A DNA stretch of 64,000 nt. It comes from Acinetobacter phage AM24. The DNA lies in the sequence record KY000079.2; one strand, 5' to 3'. The notes below the pieces were generated by a model that did not search any database, was not told the origin of the DNA, and was given only the letters and a program-made list of their open reading frames with translations. This document shows, in pieces, positions 19,442 to 26,422 of the stretch. Within the stretch, counting starts at the first letter, position 1; each line of letters starts with the position of its first letter. Made by a program: the position numbers and the translations under genes.

Positions 19442-20116
19442 ATGGACATTTTAAAATTTAACTCTCGTGGTGATTTAGTAGTTCACCTACAGAAAAAACT
19501 TGCATCATTAGGCTATAAGTTAAACCCAGATGGGATCTTTGGAAAGGCCACTCAAGAAGCTGTTATTCATTTCCAAAGACAAAATGGTTTAACTTCTGAT
19601 GGTATCGTTGGCAAGTTAACTTGGTCTATGTTGGACTCTAAAACTTCATCAATAGGTAAAACTAGAACAATTAGCCAAAACGGTATTAACTTTATAAAAA
19701 GTTTTGAGGGTTTAAGACTACGTGCTTATGACGATGGTGTTGGGGTGATCACTATTGGTTATGGCACAACTCGTTATCCAAATGGTCATAAAGTTCAATT
19801 AGGCGATACCTGCACTGAAAAACAGGCAGAACAGTACTTATCCAATGATTTAGTCAAGTTTGAAAAGGCTGTTAATGAACTAGTCAAAGTTCCAGTCAAT
19901 CAAAACCAATATGATGCACTTGTTAGCTTCACATACAATGTTGGAGTAGGTGCACTATCAACAAGTAAGGCTTTAAAGCTTCTAAATGCTGGTGATTACA
20001 CTGGTTGTGCTAAAGCAATGCTTTCTTGGAATAAGGGTCGTGTTGGTGGAAAACTTGTTGAAATCGGTGGTCTAACCAGAAGAAGAAATGCAGAAAAGGA
20101 TTTATTTTTAAAATAA
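19442..20116 (+). CDS. Endolysin with an N-terminal peptidoglycan-binding domain and a GH24 (T4-type) lysozyme domain
   Basis: PG_binding_1-like N-terminus (LQKKLASLGY...DGIFG..T..AV..FQ). Lysozyme motifs GLRLRAYDD..ITIGYG and QYDALVSFTYNVG. Confidence 0.8.
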   Translation: MDILKFNSRGDLVVHLQKKLASLGYKLNPDGIFGKATQEAVIHFQRQNGLTSDGIVGKLTWSMLDSKTSSIGKTRTISQNGINFIKSFEGLRLRAYDDGVGVITIGYGTTRYPNGHKVQLGDTCTEKQAEQYLSNDLVKFEKAVNELVKVPVNQNQYDALVSFTYNVGVGALSTSKALKLLNAGDYTGCAKAMLSWNKGRVGGKLVEIGGLTRRRNAEKDLFLK

Positions 20117-20130
20117 TCAAGGAGTGATTT

Positions 20131-20412
20131 ATGGCTGATGTTTTAGTATCAGGTATCAAAATTTCAGAAATGGACCTTGTTAATGAAGTTCAAGGTTCAG
20201 AAAAGGTCCCTACAGACCAAGTTGGTGATAAAGCTATTAGTATTGATCAAATACTTACTTATGTCAACAACAAAGTAAAACCAACTTGGGGAAACATCCA
20301 AGGTGATATTAATACACAGACTGATTTAATCAACCTTATAACTAACCAAAATGCAGCCTTGATGAATGAGGTCGAACAACTTAAAATCAGGGTTTCACAA
20401 CTAGAAACCTAA
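20131..20412 (+). CDS. Hypothetical protein, last gene of the late operon
   Basis: RBS AAGGAG. A terminator follows. Confidence 0.4.
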   Translation: MADVLVSGIKISEMDLVNEVQGSEKVPTDQVGDKAISIDQILTYVNNKVKPTWGNIQGDINTQTDLINLITNQNAALMNEVEQLKIRVSQLET

Positions 20413-20418
20413 AACAAA

Positions 20419-20449
20419 CCCCTGAAGGAATTCCTTCAGGGGTTTTTCT
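20419..20449. terminator. Strong bidirectional rho-independent terminator between convergent operons
   Basis: CCCCTGAAGGAATTCCTTCAGGGG followed by TTTTT; the complement is also U-rich. Confidence 0.8.
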
Positions 20450-20468
20450 ATGGTATATAATTCAAACT

Positions 20469-23240
20469 TTATTGACAGTTTTCACATTCTTCATATCTCT
20501 TAATATCACCAGATCCTCGCATAGAGTAAATGTAATAAAGAGCTAAAATACCATCATTTATTAAAGCATACTTATGAACCTTCATAATATACTCTGGGGT
20601 GTCATTGCTTGTAAAGTACAAGTTGATTGATTGTTGTTGGTCAATATATTGTTGACGCTGAGCACACAAATCAAGATGCTTTAGCATATCAATTTCAAAG
20701 GCAGTTCGGAAAACATCTTTCTCATGTTGAGTCAGCCAGTGTACATGTTGTACAGAACCCTTATGTTTATTGATGTCGTTTACTACATCTTCATTATAAA
20801 CACCACGCTCCTTCATGATCTCCAGAAGGACTTTATTCACCCTCCAGATATCACCTCCAGCACTTTGCTTCACAAACACCATAGCAACATCTAGGCCAAT
20901 ACCTTCGGAAGCCCCTGCCATAATCTCTGCTGTTGACTTTGTAGGTGGCATCATCATGGTTGTTGCATTACGGATACCTAGGTGAGCACAACCTTCAGGC
21001 ATTCCTAATTCACGTGCTAACCACTTAGAAGCTGCTAAGGTTTGATCTCGCATACCCTTAAAGATTTCTTCATTAAGCCAGAAACTCTCAAGGCTCCCTA
21101 CAACAATTCTACGTTTTTGTAGTAGTGTGTGGAAACCTAATACACCTGTACCAACTGCACGGAATCTCTTGGTGAAGGCTAAGATTTTTCTAAATGCCAA
21201 GGCATCCTCTTTATCTTGAACCATTCTCTTTTCCATAAACTCAATGTAGTCACTCACATTACAGTCTTGCATAATATGTGCAATAAATGCTAAGTGAGGA
21301 CATCTTGATTTCCACTCATCGTATAAGTCAAGGTTTAAGTTTAGAATTACACAAGAGAATGTATGCTTCTCATCACTACCAAGTAACACTTCTTGGCAAT
21401 TCATTGTATTCAAACCATTGAACATCAACATGTTACGTTTTGGCTCAAGTGCACAATATGTATCATCAAATCTTCCTTGGTCGATCACTTCATCAACACA
21501 TACAAATCTTTCAGCAGAACGTTGAGGTTTTCTTTCACTCCATTTTAGGCGGTGTGTTTTTAAACCTAACTGACTCAACTTAAAGAGACCTGTACTCGAT
21601 ACAAGAAGACGATAAGCATCTTGGCATTCATACAGTCCTTTATCACCTGTACCATTATTGAGAGGTAATTCTTTTAGACCACCTACATCCCTCAAGACAA
21701 CCTTTGAAGAAACACCAAGTGTTTGTAACATCAATTGCACATCTTGTAAGAATGTCTTGTGAATGCTTACCACTTGGATAGATTCATTTTCACCATTACG
21801 AGCAATAGTTCCATCTGAATCTAGGAGTCCAGCAAACCATTCCAATCGGCTTTCAATAGTGTACTCAGATGTTGGTACAAAGAATTTATCCTTAAGCCCT
21901 TCACTGTGAGTAAGCTTAATACGATCACCACCTTGAAGTCCTGACACTGAAGAAACGCAAGTTATATTTTCAAGTAACTCCTTCTTCTTACCATACAAGT
22001 ATGTGTGTTTTTTACCTTTGTATTCAAAACCATCACCAGTGAAGAATCCATTAGTGTAAGCATGTTCGAGGGCCTTGTCACCTAAAATAACTGGTAGATC
22101 AAATTTAGATAGTCGATCACCAGACTTCAACTCGTAGGCACGTTTAATGACCTCATTGCCATCCTCACCAACAACCTTAAAGCGGTGATACTCTGTGCAA
22201 TCTAATTCATACCCTGAATCAGTTACCACTTTAACTAACTTCTGATTTTCACCAGTTTTGATAATTGTCACTTCAGACCATTCAAAACCATTCCACACCT
22301 CGATCTGCTGTCCCTCAAGGTCAGAAATCGTTTGATATCCACTTTTAGTTAAGATTAACGTCTCAGGTGAAACACATAAGTTTGATGCCTTAGCAGTCAT
22401 ACCTGCATCTTTAAATGCCTGAGCTAAGTGGCGGTTCATTTCATCAATCTTAGTGAAGTAACCCTTACCACGCTGCATCTTGATAGCAATAGCTTTAGCT
22501 AATAGAGCAACTGCTTCTGGGTCATCCTTGACTAACTTCTCAATGTACTCGTCCTTACATAACCATGCTGGGTTATTACTTTCAGGTCGTTTGAATAGGT
22601 ACTTTAAAACTTCCTCAAACTCAGGATGTTCAATACTAACAGCATAAGATAAACTACCTCTACGGCTACCTTGAACAACCTCATCCATACAATTAATCAA
22701 GTCACGAATGACAGGCATCACCCCACCACCATAACCACCCCTAGGTAGTTTCTTACCTTTATAGGCCCAGTCATCAACTGAGTAAGATGTACCATGCGAA
22801 TGTTTAGTCAAGATACCTGCTTCAGTCACACAATCGTAACGAGAGAACAAGTTGTCACCAACATAACCACCAGCACAACTTACTGTTGATCCCCTTTCAG
22901 GTAAACCACTGTTCGCCAATAAAGGAGTTGAACAAGACACATAACCATCCCAAAGTACGTCAAAAAACACTTCCTCCCAAGTTTTACCAGCCGTATAAGT
23001 ATCCACATTCCACCAAGAAGGGTACTTATCTGGTGCATGTTTAGCTAAAGTCTTAGCAATCATTTTATAGCGAGCTTTTACAGTCTCACCATTCCAAGAA
23101 TACTTTTCAAAGAACAACTGAGTCCCACCAGTAGTAAACCATTTAGGGATCTCTCCATGTTCTTGTAGTTTTTTTCGAAGTTGACTGTAACTATCAACCC
23201 CGTATAATTCTAATGTTTCTAAAAAAGACAAAACAGCCAC
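20469..23240 (-). CDS. nrdA: Class I ribonucleotide reductase large subunit containing an intein; GTG start
   Basis: The SNL|C...HN|CQEV junction recreates the SNLCxE active-site motif. RBS AAGGAG. No ATP-cone is visible. Confidence 0.8.
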   Translation of the reverse strand: MAVLSFLETLELYGVDSYSQLRKKLQEHGEIPKWFTTGGTQLFFEKYSWNGETVKARYKMIAKTLAKHAPDKYPSWWNVDTYTAGKTWEEVFFDVLWDGYVSCSTPLLANSGLPERGSTVSCAGGYVGDNLFSRYDCVTEAGILTKHSHGTSYSVDDWAYKGKKLPRGGYGGGVMPVIRDLINCMDEVVQGSRRGSLSYAVSIEHPEFEEVLKYLFKRPESNNPAWLCKDEYIEKLVKDDPEAVALLAKAIAIKMQRGKGYFTKIDEMNRHLAQAFKDAGMTAKASNLCVSPETLILTKSGYQTISDLEGQQIEVWNGFEWSEVTIIKTGENQKLVKVVTDSGYELDCTEYHRFKVVGEDGNEVIKRAYELKSGDRLSKFDLPVILGDKALEHAYTNGFFTGDGFEYKGKKHTYLYGKKKELLENITCVSSVSGLQGGDRIKLTHSEGLKDKFFVPTSEYTIESRLEWFAGLLDSDGTIARNGENESIQVVSIHKTFLQDVQLMLQTLGVSSKVVLRDVGGLKELPLNNGTGDKGLYECQDAYRLLVSSTGLFKLSQLGLKTHRLKWSERKPQRSAERFVCVDEVIDQGRFDDTYCALEPKRNMLMFNGLNTMNCQEVLLGSDEKHTFSCVILNLNLDLYDEWKSRCPHLAFIAHIMQDCNVSDYIEFMEKRMVQDKEDALAFRKILAFTKRFRAVGTGVLGFHTLLQKRRIVVGSLESFWLNEEIFKGMRDQTLAASKWLARELGMPEGCAHLGIRNATTMMMPPTKSTAEIMAGASEGIGLDVAMVFVKQSAGGDIWRVNKVLLEIMKERGVYNEDVVNDINKHKGSVQHVHWLTQHEKDVFRTAFEIDMLKHLDLCAQRQQYIDQQQSINLYFTSNDTPEYIMKVHKYALINDGILALYYIYSMRGSGDIKRYEECENCQ
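21399..22376 (-). mobile_element. Intein (326 aa) with a LAGLIDADG homing endonuclease domain inside nrdA
   Basis: Begins CVSPETLIL and ends FNGLNTMN followed by Cys. Contains the motif LEWFAGLLDSDGTI. Confidence 0.75.
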
Positions 23241-23250
23241 AAATATCTCC

Positions 23251-24522
23251 TTACTTACTTCCTTGTAATCCTTTATTATCTTCTGAATCTTCCATGATCA
23301 GATTCAAGAGTTCTTCTTGTTCCTCTTGTTCTTTCTTCCTCATATTATTCCAAGCTTCTACAAACATAGCCTCAGACCAGTTACTTTCATACTCTCGGTT
23401 TTGACCCTTAGTGAAGAAATCTGGCATCTGGTAACCGTATGTATTTAAGTTAAACATCTTAGCCACTTTGGAATCCTTCTGAGTAACTTGGAACTCTTTA
23501 GGGATTTTATCTACAGGAACCTGCAAACGAGTCAAGAAAGTAAAGATTCGGAAGCGCACAAAATCAATGTACTCGGCTGTTGTATACCCATTGAGTGAAC
23601 CTGAAGGGATTGCCATATCAATGATTCGCTTCTCATGCTCTAACACGTAGTGGCAAGCTTGTAGTAACTTTCCAAACATTTCTTCATGCTCATGTAGAGG
23701 TTTTCCTACTTCATGGAAATAGGTGTTAAAATGTTCTGCTGCATAAATACCATGAAGGTCTTCATCTAGTGCACTTTGGTTAGCAATTTGTGCAATAACT
23801 TTAATTAAGTTAAAACCGTTTGTCTGGAAGCTTTTAAGGATGGCAAAGCTAGAGAACAACAAAGCTGTCTCTGTTAAAGAGAAGCACAAGCATGCAAGCA
23901 TCTTGTTTTCATCTCGCATTAACCCATCTAACCATTCCATACGTTCATTGAGCACAGGGTCATCAATGTAGGATGTGTAGTAATCATCGGTATCTAGGCC
24001 AAGTACAATGTTAATTTCATTGTATGTTCGTGCATGGACCATCAACTCAATCATTGCTAAAGCAGAAGCACCAGCACGGGATTCATGTCGAGGGAATACT
24101 TTAATGAATAATCCATTCCAGAATTCATCACCAACAATTAGTTCATACTGTAAGAATAAGTGTAGAACTGTTTTTACTGCATGTAGTTGCTCTTTAGTAA
24201 GCACATACTCAAGTTCCATCTGGTCATTCTTGACTTCCATTTCACTCTTGAACCACATCTGCTCTTCAAGCTGCTGGTCAGCAATCTCAAGAATCTTTGG
24301 GTACTTAATTTCATAGCCACTATTGGGTGATGTAATACGGGTTTGCACTAACCCAGTTTTCTCTGAATTTAGTGTTTTGTTTATTGTCACATAAACGAAT
24401 TTCCCTTCAGGGTTTTTCTCATCCTTGACATTGATAATAACCTTTCCAGTTGGTGGTGGTAAAAATCCAATCTTCTCAACCTGGCCTTCGGTTAAATCTA
24501 CCTCAATATTGATTTTAGACAT
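23251..24522 (-). CDS. nrdB: Ribonucleotide reductase small subunit (R2) with an ~80-aa N-terminal extension
   Basis: Di-iron ligand motifs ELMVH and DEDLHG. RBS AAGGAG. Confidence 0.75.
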   Translation of the reverse strand: MSKINIEVDLTEGQVEKIGFLPPPTGKVIINVKDEKNPEGKFVYVTINKTLNSEKTGLVQTRITSPNSGYEIKYPKILEIADQQLEEQMWFKSEMEVKNDQMELEYVLTKEQLHAVKTVLHLFLQYELIVGDEFWNGLFIKVFPRHESRAGASALAMIELMVHARTYNEINIVLGLDTDDYYTSYIDDPVLNERMEWLDGLMRDENKMLACLCFSLTETALLFSSFAILKSFQTNGFNLIKVIAQIANQSALDEDLHGIYAAEHFNTYFHEVGKPLHEHEEMFGKLLQACHYVLEHEKRIIDMAIPSGSLNGYTTAEYIDFVRFRIFTFLTRLQVPVDKIPKEFQVTQKDSKVAKMFNLNTYGYQMPDFFTKGQNREYESNWSEAMFVEAWNNMRKKEQEEQEELLNLIMEDSEDNKGLQGSK

Positions 24523-24601
24523 CTTAACTCCTTTTAATTTATAAAATTATAAATCATAAACTCCATGTAAAAGTAAGGCCACTCAATGGTGGCCTCTTCT
24601 G

Positions 24602-25078
24602 TTATTTACGTTTAATTCTTGCACTGGTAATTCGAGGTTTATCTGAAGAGCGATGATACTCAATTTCAAAACCCAACTCATTTAAGATGTCTGAAAATTC
24701 ACGAGAGGTTAAATTGGAGTCAAACAATGGTACATCCTCACCATAATTCTTGACAACTTTAATACCTTGAATTTCCTTACGAGATACCTTTTCCAAGATT
24801 TCTTCACAAAATAACTTAGCGAATAAGTCACACAGTGTTTGTACTGCTGGTCGTTTCTCTGGGGTTCGAAAACCGTTCTGGTCCTCTAATGAGTGCCAAC
24901 CCCACCAACGACCTTCACCAATGTCAGTCTGTGCAAATAAACTTCGAGTATTTCTTTTGTGATCCTGATAATGCCCAAGTCGCACAATAAAGTTATCTAG
25001 AGTATTCCCTGTCATGTCTACATAATTAGGACGTTTGGTAGGGTCTTTCTCTTGGACTTGGTTTACTGTTTCAATCAT
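24602..25078 (-). CDS. Hypothetical protein, first gene of the leftward nrd operon
   Basis: RBS AAGGAG on the minus strand. Confidence 0.45.
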   Translation of the reverse strand: MIETVNQVQEKDPTKRPNYVDMTGNTLDNFIVRLGHYQDHKRNTRSLFAQTDIGEGRWWGWHSLEDQNGFRTPEKRPAVQTLCDLFAKLFCEEILEKVSRKEIQGIKVVKNYGEDVPLFDSNLTSREFSDILNELGFEIEYHRSSDKPRITSARIKRK

Positions 25079-25500
25079 ATAGTCTCCTTATGAATTGTTT
25101 ACATAATATGTAGGGATGTTATCTGGCACCACTACAAGTTGAAGGTATTGTAGTATGAATTAAATTTATAAAACACCCCACACCTTTAGAAATTCTTAAA
25201 AGTTTACCTTGTTTGGTTGTTTGTTAAACACAACACAAAATAAAGGTAGAACCTAGAGGTTATCTTTAAATTTGTCCCTAGGGGAAAATCCTTCAGGGAA
25301 TAAAAAAGGACACCACTTAAAGTAGTGCCCTAAAAAGTACCCTAGGAAATATTACTATAATAACCCTGAGTCAAATTTTTTAAGTATCCCTTATATTTAT
25401 AATACCCCAAAAAGTAATTTTGTCAAGCTAAAACCATGCCAACTAATCATTGGAAATTTCGATTAAAAATTAAATATTAGTAAATTCTGTAAAAATACAT

Positions 25501-25583
25501 CAGACCGATTTGATCAAATGCATTTTTTAAAAGTGAAAATAACCAGTTCAAAATGGTTTTAACCAGACCGATTTGATCAAATG
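25501..25583. repeat. Two copies of the 20-bp direct repeat CAGACCGATTTGATCAAATG, 63 bp apart, each containing the palindrome TTGATCAA
   Basis: Exact copies at 25501-25520 and 25564-25583 in the divergent intergenic region. Confidence 0.7.
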
Positions 25584-25630
25584 TTCTAATAAGGTAATAA
25601 ATAGGGTTTTAAATATGTTTCTTTTTTAAG

Positions 25631-25659
25631 TTGACAGAGAAAAAATTTTTTTATAAAGT
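25631..25659 (+). promoter_or_regulatory. Sigma70-like promoter (TTGACA, 17-nt spacer, TAAAGT)
   Basis: Seen in the sequence upstream of the RBS-supported ATG at 25706. Confidence 0.45.
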
Positions 25660-25705
25660 TATCCACATCCAAAGATGGTTGATTGGTATAAGTAAGGAGA
25701 ATTTC

Positions 25706-26422
25706 ATGTTTAAAGGTTTTTTAACAGATGTTGCAAAAGAAGCTGGTGTTGGTCCTGCAATTCTTTTAAATCAGTTGCACCAATGGGTTAAGTCTACTGG
25801 AAACCAGAAGATTTACCGTTCTAATGCTCAATTATCTGAAGACCTTGATGGAGTTCTTTCAGTAGCAGCTATTCAACGTCATAAGGTAAAACTGATTGAA
25901 TGTGGATACATTATCGTTTCTCACGATAAAGGAACTATTCGTACCACTACTTACCAATTAACTGAGAAAGCTTTGAAATCTTTAGGTGCTTTCTTTGACA
26001 AAGCTAAAGACAAAGTTAAACAAGCCTTCCAACCTAAAAAACCTAAACAACAAGTTCCAGCACAACCTAAAGAGGAACCAGTAAAGCAAAGCACTGAGAA
26101 ACCAACCTCTATGGAAGAAGAGTTTAAGAAAGCTGGTCAAGAACGTAAGGACCGCCCTAGAGGTTGCCCTAAAGAACTTCTTAAAGGTATCTTTATGAGT
26201 GCTAAGAAAGAAGAGGAAAAACAAGAAGATGTTGTTTATGAGGACAATTCTGAAGAGTTATTTGGAAAGAAATTCGAAAGTGAAGACTTGAGTGATGAAG
26301 AAATCTTTGATAAAATGAGTAAAACTCTTGGTGGTTTATTTAAGACTATCCCTAATGTGGATAAAAGAAATTCAAACCTTCAAGCTATAAATAACTTTGG
26401 TAACTTTCGAGAAGAGTACTAA
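25706..26422 (+). CDS. Putative DNA-binding (winged-helix) protein with a Lys/Glu-rich C-terminus
   Basis: RBS AAGGAG 6 nt upstream. The track start at 25631 overlaps the promoter and is rejected. Confidence 0.45.
   Translation: MFKGFLTDVAKEAGVGPAILLNQLHQWVKSTGNQKIYRSNAQLSEDLDGVLSVAAIQRHKVKLIECGYIIVSHDKGTIRTTTYQLTEKALKSLGAFFDKAKDKVKQAFQPKKPKQQVPAQPKEEPVKQSTEKPTSMEEEFKKAGQERKDRPRGCPKELLKGIFMSAKKEEEKQEDVVYEDNSEELFGKKFESEDLSDEEIFDKMSKTLGGLFKTIPNVDKRNSNLQAINNFGNFREEY

Follow-up and report, generated by a model that had tools for sequence, protein, structure and literature searches.

The stretch of DNA analysed here, which we call the window, comprises 64,000 nucleotides of Acinetobacter phage AM24 (record KY000079.2), and the subject of this report is its nrdA gene, which encodes the large (alpha) subunit of ribonucleotide reductase (RNR) and is interrupted in frame by a segment of 326 codons. 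A sequence-only reading of the window had described this segment as a LAGLIDADG intein inserted at the active-site motif SNLC. Our comparisons leave us highly confident that it is a class 1 intein (Cys1, Cys+1 and a C-terminal Asn) that carries a two-motif LAGLIDADG homing endonuclease and lies directly N-terminal to the thiyl-radical cysteine. The gene, its parts and its partner gene are as follows.

20469..23240, minus strand: nrdA precursor open reading frame (ORF), 923 aa, 104.7 kDa, GTG start; N-extein, putative intein and C-extein
22377..23240, minus strand: N-extein, aa 1-288, last residues ...TAKASNL
21399..22376, minus strand: putative intein, 978 nt, 326 aa, 36.7 kDa; predicted Hint splicing domain interrupted by a LAGLIDADG homing endonuclease with two motifs
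20469..21398, minus strand: C-extein, aa 615-923 and the stop codon; first residue Cys+1 (TGC, 21396-21398), the thiyl-radical cysteine of SNLCQE
23247..23252, minus strand: ribosome-binding site AAGGAG of nrdA, read from the sequence, overlapping the nrdB stop codon
23251..24522, minus strand: nrdB, RNR small subunit, 423 aa, immediately upstream of nrdA in the same orientation; Pfam Ribonuc_red_sm 4e-31

Domain and motif comparisons support the host protein as a class I RNR alpha subunit that lacks an ATP-cone and has NrdB encoded next to it, and the nrdB product is the partner of the spliced NrdA. In Pfam, the nrdA ORF matches Ribonuc_red_lgC (3e-49) and Ribonuc_red_lgN (5e-8), so that the extein domains are the RNR all-alpha and barrel domains only, and a Pfam search found no ATP-cone in NrdA even at E ≤ 10. 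As the all-alpha domain (residues 35-115) already starts at residue 35, the earlier statement that mature NrdA has 597 aa and no N-terminal ATP-cone holds. The closest NCBIfam model is NrdE-prime (TIGR02510), with 405 bits, which is below the equivalog cut-off of 602, and among class I alpha subunits, the extein appears to resemble the short NrdE-prime type most. Of the solved structures, the RNR alpha chains 6DQW and 6DQX (574-585 aa, E 1e-69), which we take to be class Id alpha subunits, match the spliced protein best. The spliced protein would also carry the motifs expected of a class I alpha subunit, namely SNLCQE (the N-C-E loop), the cysteine of HTFSC, the tyrosine pair of LYYIY and a C-terminal CENCQ (CxxC), and the residues of the N-C-E loop presumably correspond to N437, C439 and E441 of the E. 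coli enzyme.

The inserted segment and its insert-free orthologues

Reading the codons from the DNA bore out the boundaries given for the insert (21399-22376, 326 aa, beginning CVSPETLIL and ending FNGLNTMN, with SNL before it and CQEV after it). At one junction, TCA AAC TTA (S-N-L) is followed by TGT for Cys1 at 22376-22374, and at the other, AAT for Asn326 (21401-21399) is followed by TGC CAA GAA (C-Q-E), the TGC of Cys+1 occupying 21398-21396. NrdA without the insert is a protein of 597 aa with an unbroken AKASNLCQEVLL, and the claim that excision restores SNLCQE is correct on this count as well as on that of a natural allele, described below, whose gap matches the insert exactly.

A megablast of phage genomes with the nrdA ORF returned seven records, all from Acinetobacter baumannii phages with genomes of about 97-102 kb. 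Bestia, YMC13/03/R2096 (two records), P577, Herod and Ab15 match the ORF end to end at 94.7-96.1% identity, and Mithridates, whose annotated coding sequence is 1794 nt long, matches 65% of the query, in two pieces. The NrdA of Mithridates has 597 aa and is 98% identical over the exteins, and its sole gap relative to the window protein falls at residues 289-614, which is exactly the insert; in the N-extein, no amino acid differs between the window and either Bestia or Mithridates. The empty nrdA site of Mithridates consists of GCTTCTAATTTG followed, across the insertion point, by TGTCAGGAA (also written as GCTTCTAATTTG followed by TGTCAGGAAGTG).

The alignment of the extein with other NrdA sequences, which the sequence-only reading had suggested as a check, was extended beyond this phage group. 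The structures 6DQW and 6DQX align without a break at the insertion point (ASNLCSEIML versus ASNLCQEVLL), and 29 of 32 IMG/VR relatives of the window NrdA clade have an uninterrupted [ST][NQ]L-C, the other three being interrupted at the insertion point. Because the segment is absent from Mithridates with residue-exact boundaries, and is also absent from those 29 relatives and from 6DQW and 6DQX, these alignments support its being an insertion and not a conserved region of NrdA. Its placement in the thiyl-radical cysteine loop of a class I RNR, also proposed earlier, agrees with the Pfam RNR domains, with the 6DQW alignment and with the literature, in which the site directly N-terminal to this cysteine is the most frequent RNR intein site (PMC2677866). 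An element acting at the RNA level, such as a group I intron, was considered and rejected: the insert is an open in-frame stretch of 978 nt, and no Rfam match to any RNA family, group I introns included, was found in 20000..25000. The GC content of the insert is not distinct from that of the rest of nrdA.

Domains and relatives of the putative intein

We assigned the splicing blocks from a ten-member alignment of the intein family. From the N-terminus of the intein onwards, the blocks and the endonuclease motifs are the following.

22347..22376, minus strand: block A, CVSPETLILT, with Cys1 as the predicted nucleophile for the N-S acyl shift; C1, T6, L9 and T10 invariant in the family alignment
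22179..22202, minus strand: block B, DCTEYHRF, with Thr61 (B:7) and His64 (B:10) of the TxxH motif, both invariant
22026..22061, minus strand: first LAGLIDADG motif, AYTNGFFTGDGF, intein residues 106-117, acidic residue D115; aligns with WLAGFIAGDG of PI-PfuI
21804..21845, minus strand: second LAGLIDADG motif, LEWFAGLLDSDGTI, intein residues 178-191, acidic residue D188; Pfam LAGLIDADG_3 1.8e-11
21441..21467, minus strand: block F, DDTYCALEP, with D305 invariant and C308 at F:4 (Asp in the SPbeta-type member)
21399..21422, minus strand: block G, FNGLNTMN, with N326 as the predicted cyclising residue and M325 penultimate, followed by Cys+1

Searches with Hint and LAGLIDADG models, which had likewise been suggested, found blocks A, B, F and G present and two models above their cut-offs, namely TIGR01445 (intein_Nterm) at the N-terminus of the intein, with 36.9 bits (cut-off 24.5), and Pfam LAGLIDADG_3, with 44.6 bits (cut-off 22.5). 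The family alignment conserves C1, T61, H64, D305, F319, G321, the terminal Asn or Gln, and the Gly and Asp residues of both LAGLIDADG motifs. Compared with solved structures, the intein sequence by itself matched PI-PfuI (1DQ3) at E 1.6e-4, and the ten-member family profile matched the solved inteins 1DQ3 (1.7e-12), 6RPQ (1.3e-5) and Npu DnaE (2e-4), with further matches to the Pho CDC21, V-ATPase, Pab PolC and PI-SceI inteins.

The endonuclease would be of the single-chain, two-motif LAGLIDADG type, and cleavage is predicted. The acidic residue of the G-D-G is kept in both motifs, both motifs align to PI-PfuI, the family profile matches the free-standing LAGLIDADG enzymes I-CvuI, I-MsoI and I-DmoI, and the two motifs, with D115 and D188, are identical and intact in all six Acinetobacter phage alleles. 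The earlier proposal of a homing endonuclease domain thus stands, given the LAGLIDADG_3 score and the profile match to PI-PfuI; it had counted a single motif, having missed AYTNGFFTGDGF, and there are two.

The window intein appears to be a further member of a well-populated family of LAGLIDADG inteins at the thiyl-radical cysteine site of RNR. A tblastn search with the intein matched 339 phage records, and among the matches listed, each falls within an ORF that is either unnamed or annotated as RNR large subunit (for ICP1, SelmaRatti and Karma, E was 1e-107 to 1e-24). The phages of the family have hosts such as Rheinheimera, Vibrio, Caulobacter, Bacillus, Corynebacterium, Staphylococcus, Brevundimonas, Ralstonia, Pectobacterium, Escherichia and Bacteroides, and they include ICP1 and T5-like, phiCbK-like and SPbeta-like phages. 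In all ten phage loci inspected, the insertion lies at ...NL/CV... and ends at ...G[NQ]/C.E (the slash marks the junction). Some of these inteins are already annotated, the ICP1, SelmaRatti and CcrKarma records reading "intein-containing ... precursor" and the phi3Ts record "intein-containing". A scan of bacteria with the family alignment, using one genome per species, added 44 members, for example in cyanobacteria (Crocosphaera, Microcystis), Bacillota, Leptotrichia, Corynebacterium, Bacteroidota and the candidate phyla radiation, and the 21 that were inspected all sit at the NL/C site and end at ...[NQ]/C.E. Going by the motif, the cyanobacterial context GYIPGxNL/C...CxESxSNV is that of a class II RNR. 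Many family members, including those of Vibrio, Rheinheimera and Staphylococcus phages, cyanobacteria and Bacillota, end in Gly-Gln and not in Asn.

Identity to any member outside the Acinetobacter phage group is at most 55%, and in 185,579 representative bacterial genomes, we found no close relative by exact peptide words and at most 52% identity by the family alignment. The GenBank copies that are 98-99% identical at the amino acid level are unannotated or lightly annotated; for instance, the intein of YMC13/03/R2096 is 98.2% identical to that of the window, and the 2014 record of this phage bears the note "TIGRFAM intein_Nterm; Pfam LAGLIDADG-like domain".

Among known systems, the inteins of Vibrio phage ICP1 NrdA (gp203), of the Vibrio phages PG07, eugene and helene, of the Rheinheimera Barba phages and of Staphylococcus Silviavirus phages occupy the same SNL/C site. 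They share with the window intein the order Hint-N, two-motif LAGLIDADG and Hint-C, a length of about 325 aa, and the F:4 Cys and G:5 Thr, and full-length identity is 47-55% (E about 1e-90 to 1e-107). However, their last two residues are Gly-Gln and those of the window intein Met-Asn, and their host NrdA is about 750 aa long when mature and of class Ia type, whereas that of the window has 597 aa and no ATP-cone. ICP1 gp203 has been described as an intein-encoded LAGLIDADG homing endonuclease gene that is spliced out of NrdA (PMC10448857). The inteins of Escherichia phage SelmaRatti (T5-like), Caulobacter phage CcrKarma and the SPbeta-like Bacillus phage phi3Ts also have the window's site and Cys1, with a terminal Gly-Asn followed by Cys+1, and are homologous to the window intein over its whole length, but they are much more divergent (42%, 31% and 25% identity, respectively); those of SelmaRatti and CcrKarma are annotated as mat_peptide. 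In the SPbeta-type intein of phi3Ts, F:4 is the canonical Asp and block F contains a His, and the intein of CcrKarma has a degenerate first LAGLIDADG motif. For SPbeta nrdE, an intein has been reported (Lazarevic 1998, as referred to in PMC3653736).

A smaller relative is found in the NrdA of Burkholderia phage SURPRISE13, which has a mini-intein of about 134 aa of the same family at the SNL/C site without an endonuclease domain; the N-terminal part of its Hint domain is 46% identical to that of the window intein over 100 aa, and the C-terminal FCFNEPLRHKAMFNGIVTGQ is common to both. The best solved-structure match, PI-PfuI (1DQ3), is presumably the intein endonuclease of the Pyrococcus furiosus RNR. 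Its block B and both LAGLIDADG motifs align to the window intein, but it is only distantly similar, has 454 aa with extra DNA-binding parts, and its C-terminal splicing blocks did not align. The RNR intein of Chilo iridescent virus, compared by description only, has an atypical C-terminal Gln, as do many members of the family, whereas the window intein keeps Asn.

Probable mobility of the intein, and the surrounding region

The intein is far younger than the gene in which it sits. Over the same genome pairs from five alleles, its synonymous divergence (pS) is 0.009-0.024, compared with 0.07-0.20 for the N-extein and 0.06-0.40 for the C-extein, which places it about 3-40 times below the flanking exteins (Fisher p 0.013 to 1e-22). 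For instance, the window and Herod have 4 synonymous differences in the intein versus 32 in the N-extein (Fisher p 6e-8), and the window and Bestia have 4 in the intein versus 71 in the C-extein (Fisher p 1e-22). Selection at the protein level cannot keep synonymous sites unchanged, and the low pS therefore means that the intein spread among phages that had already diverged.

The DNA beside the insertion point also carries a trace of recombination. Between the window and Mithridates, nine consecutive codons differ at their third positions, from -19 to +5 of the insertion point, with 7 differences in 845 over the rest of the N-extein. On the N-extein side, the differences form the following feature.

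22377..22397, minus strand: seven-codon N-flank patch, ACT GCT AAG GCA TCA AAC TTA, abutting the insertion point; candidate co-conversion tract and part of the putative homing site

This version of the flank (A) is found in the window and Bestia, and a second version (B), ACA GCG AAA GCT TCT AAT TTG, is found in YMC13/03/R2096, P577, Herod, Ab15 and the empty allele of Mithridates, all seven codons differing synonymously between the two. The two changes on the C-extein side separate TGC CAA, in all intein-bearing alleles, from TGT CAG in Mithridates. The seven-codon patch is a recombination tract from a divergent source, and its pattern is that expected of homing co-conversion, of which it is not proof. 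A search for its donor among 31 family members found none that encodes TAKASNL and none that resembles version A. An exact-pattern scan of IMG/VR found no version A flank and version B in a single contig, which is YMC13/03/R2096 itself, and a C-extein scan of IMG/VR for close alleles found only that contig and relatives at 61% identity or less. An attempt to polarise the nine synonymous differences with the outgroup Ab1-TPeters (about 70% amino acid identity) was given up, as its states were mixed, which indicates that these sites are saturated.

Occupancy of the site is sporadic, being limited to the 3 of 32 IMG/VR relatives mentioned above, and the family includes both the mini-intein of SURPRISE13, which has lost the endonuclease, and the decayed first motif of CcrKarma, which are usual stages of the homing cycle. 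The low pS of the intein, the patch abutting the junction and the sporadic occupancy point to recent homing. Two observations count against this interpretation. The patch is present in only two of the six intein-bearing alleles, and both versions of the N-flank co-occur with the intein, so that it marks recombination beside the intein without proving cleavage by the endonuclease. In addition, the ratio of non-synonymous to synonymous divergence (pN/pS) of the intein ranges from 0.0 to 0.8 on just 2-11 differences per pair, which makes it noisier as well as higher than that of the exteins, and there may be some relaxation of constraint on the intein.

It is conceivable, although we consider it unlikely, that the intein splices while its endonuclease is no longer active, its inheritance being vertical or by ordinary recombination, as at a late stage of the homing cycle. 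Such a situation would fit the intein pN/pS of 0.2-0.8 in most pairs, well above the exteins (on very few changes), and the presence of the intein in six of the seven sequenced members of the phage group, which leaves few targets, as well as the degeneration seen in CcrKarma and SURPRISE13. However, it would not explain why both LAGLIDADG motifs, with D115 and D188, are intact and identical in all six alleles, nor why the short saturated synonymous patch stops exactly at the insertion point, and a synonymous divergence about 3-40 times below that of the flanking gene requires recent horizontal spread. Recent homing by an endonuclease that is predicted to be active is the interpretation that we prefer.

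The intein is not the only variable element of this region. The nrdB gene is uninterrupted in the window, Bestia and Mithridates, and the other phages have inserts at one point, which corresponds to window position 23757/23758 (after nrdB nt 765, ALDED/LHGIY): 856 nt with an HNH endonuclease ORF in YMC13/03/R2096 and P577, 448 nt in Ab15 and 322 nt in Herod. The nrdB insert matches the Rfam group I intron family RF00028 with 43.6 bits (E 2.9e-9), below the gathering score of 50. This pattern indicates a second homing element next door, which is present, decayed or absent across the phage group. A mosaic patch at about 20200..21300, comprising the 3′ third of nrdA, the intergenic region and a small ORF (20131..20412), has 79-90% identity to all six sequenced relatives and is flanked on both sides by sequence that is 97-100% identical; it is unique to the window's phage and starts about 100 nt downstream of the intein. 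The stretch 25440..26240, which lies upstream of the RNR operon, matches Mithridates (97-98%) and neither Bestia nor Herod, which have an annotated HNH homing endonuclease or DNA-binding gene in this place. The RNR region seems to be a variable island of genes for homing endonucleases. Ahead of Ribonuc_red_sm, NrdB is extended at its N-terminus by about 70 aa (about 24315..24522, minus strand), which have no Pfam match at E ≤ 10 and are not an ATP-cone. Just downstream of nrdA, on the opposite strand, an endolysin ORF (19442..20116, plus strand), annotated in the relatives with peptidoglycan-binding and lysozyme domains, is ordinary phage content and confirms the window as a phage genome.

Predicted splicing and the proposed life cycle

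The gene that the insert interrupts gives indirect evidence of splicing. Unspliced NrdA should be inactive, because the insert parts N287 from C+1 and E+3 of the catalytic loop. Among intein-bearing alleles, the extein pN/pS is 0.00-0.16, with dozens of synonymous changes, and this purifying selection means that NrdA is still in use, which requires splicing. The nucleophiles C1, N326 and C+1 and the TxxH motif are also intact in all six alleles. We therefore infer that the insert splices, and the DNA cleavage by the intein and its cleavage site are predictions.

Several points nevertheless weigh against this interpretation of the insert. The Pfam Intein_splicing match (27.1 bits) is under its gathering score of 35.8, and in an NCBIfam search, the C-terminal intein model TIGR01443 had no match to the window protein. 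The penultimate residue (G:6) is Met325 and not the canonical His; the other 31 family members inspected all have Gly here, and a penultimate Met was seen only in the Acinetobacter phage group. At F:4 there is Cys308 and not Asp, this Cys being near-invariant across the family, and when the Pho CDC21 intein is aligned, weakly (-0.9 bits), its VYD falls over the tyC of block F. Asn315 stands at the block F position (F:13) at which RP15, C3PO and phi3Ts have His. A single-sequence AlphaFold model of the intein alone reached a pLDDT of 35.6 and a pTM of 0.24 and was discarded as unusable, and the Hint fold is therefore predicted from sequence profiles only. The non-canonical residues are known kinds of variation: about 5% of functional inteins lack His at G:6, and Cys is the second commonest residue at F:4, which, like F:13, is a less conserved position (PMC4031507). 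The departures at F:4 and F:13 thus indicate a variant, and not exclusion from class 1.

The cysteine at F:4 could have a role of its own, acting as a branch-point nucleophile in the manner of class 3 inteins or as a redox partner of Cys1 or Cys+1, with non-standard or conditional splicing as the outcome. If this were true, the thiol redox state in the infected cell would control the maturation of a radical enzyme, RNR. Class 3 inteins are defined by the lack of an N-terminal nucleophile together with the WCT triplet (Trp at B:12, Cys at F:4 and Thr at G:5), and those of mycobacteriophage Bethlehem DnaB and M. smegmatis DnaBi1 share Cys F:4 and Thr G:5 with the window intein (PMC2807308). Two of the three residues of the WCT signature are thus present and conserved across the family, in which His G:6 is absent, and in class 3 inteins, the F:4 Cys sits at the place of the class 1 catalytic Asp and can form a regulatory disulfide (PMC6195587, PMC2807308). 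Membership in class 3 was nevertheless rejected, as Cys1 is invariant and the defining lack of an N-terminal nucleophile does not apply, and B:12 is Phe66 in the window and Phe or Tyr in the family, but not Trp, so that just the Cys and the Thr fit. Considering also that Cys is the second commonest residue at F:4 in inteins generally, we think it very unlikely that C308 has such a role.

That the insert does not splice at all, so that nrdA is dead, the phage relies on the host RNR and the frame is open only because the insertion is recent, is the least credible explanation and highly improbable: the Met in place of the penultimate His, the lack of a match to the C-terminal intein hidden Markov model, and the precedents of dispensable phage RNR genes and of a degenerating, intein-interrupted nrdA in Campylobacter phages (PMC3653736) would be in keeping with it, but the exteins have many synonymous and almost no non-synonymous changes, C1, N326, C+1 and TxxH are kept in every allele, and all family members inspected lack His G:6, three of which carry the annotation of a spliced intein in their phage records.

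With a splicing class 1 intein that has an active endonuclease, the life cycle would be as follows. The nrdB and nrdA genes would be expressed together, and the 105-kDa NrdA precursor would be inactive, as the insert interrupts the N-C-E loop of the active site. With the help of Thr61 and His64, the Hint domain would then undergo an N-S acyl shift at Cys1; transesterification to Cys+1 would follow, then cyclisation of Asn326 and finally an S-N shift. The products would be a free intein of 37 kDa and a 68-kDa NrdA whose SNLCQE loop is intact. If an intein-less relative, for instance Mithridates, infected the same cell, the free intein would be expected to cut the empty site between GCTTCTAATTTG and TGTCAGGAA, and repair off the intein-bearing genome would copy the intein together with a short stretch of its flank.

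For biology at large, the finding carries little weight, because RNR is among the most intein-rich proteins (it ranks second among intein-bearing bacterial proteins; PMC4760082) and the site is its commonest. What is new here is the natural empty-site allele, the population-genetic evidence of recent homing and the unusual penultimate Met, which is a natural variant of possible interest to intein engineers. The annotation of the gene should show an intein-containing precursor and a mature NrdA of 597 aa, as most of the near-identical 923-aa GenBank records say just ribonucleotide reductase. The six intein-bearing phages and Mithridates provide a natural pair of occupied and empty alleles, to which the nrdB group I intron, with its intact, decayed or absent HNH gene, can be added, and this makes the phage group a compact system for the dynamics of homing elements in therapeutic A. 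baumannii phages.

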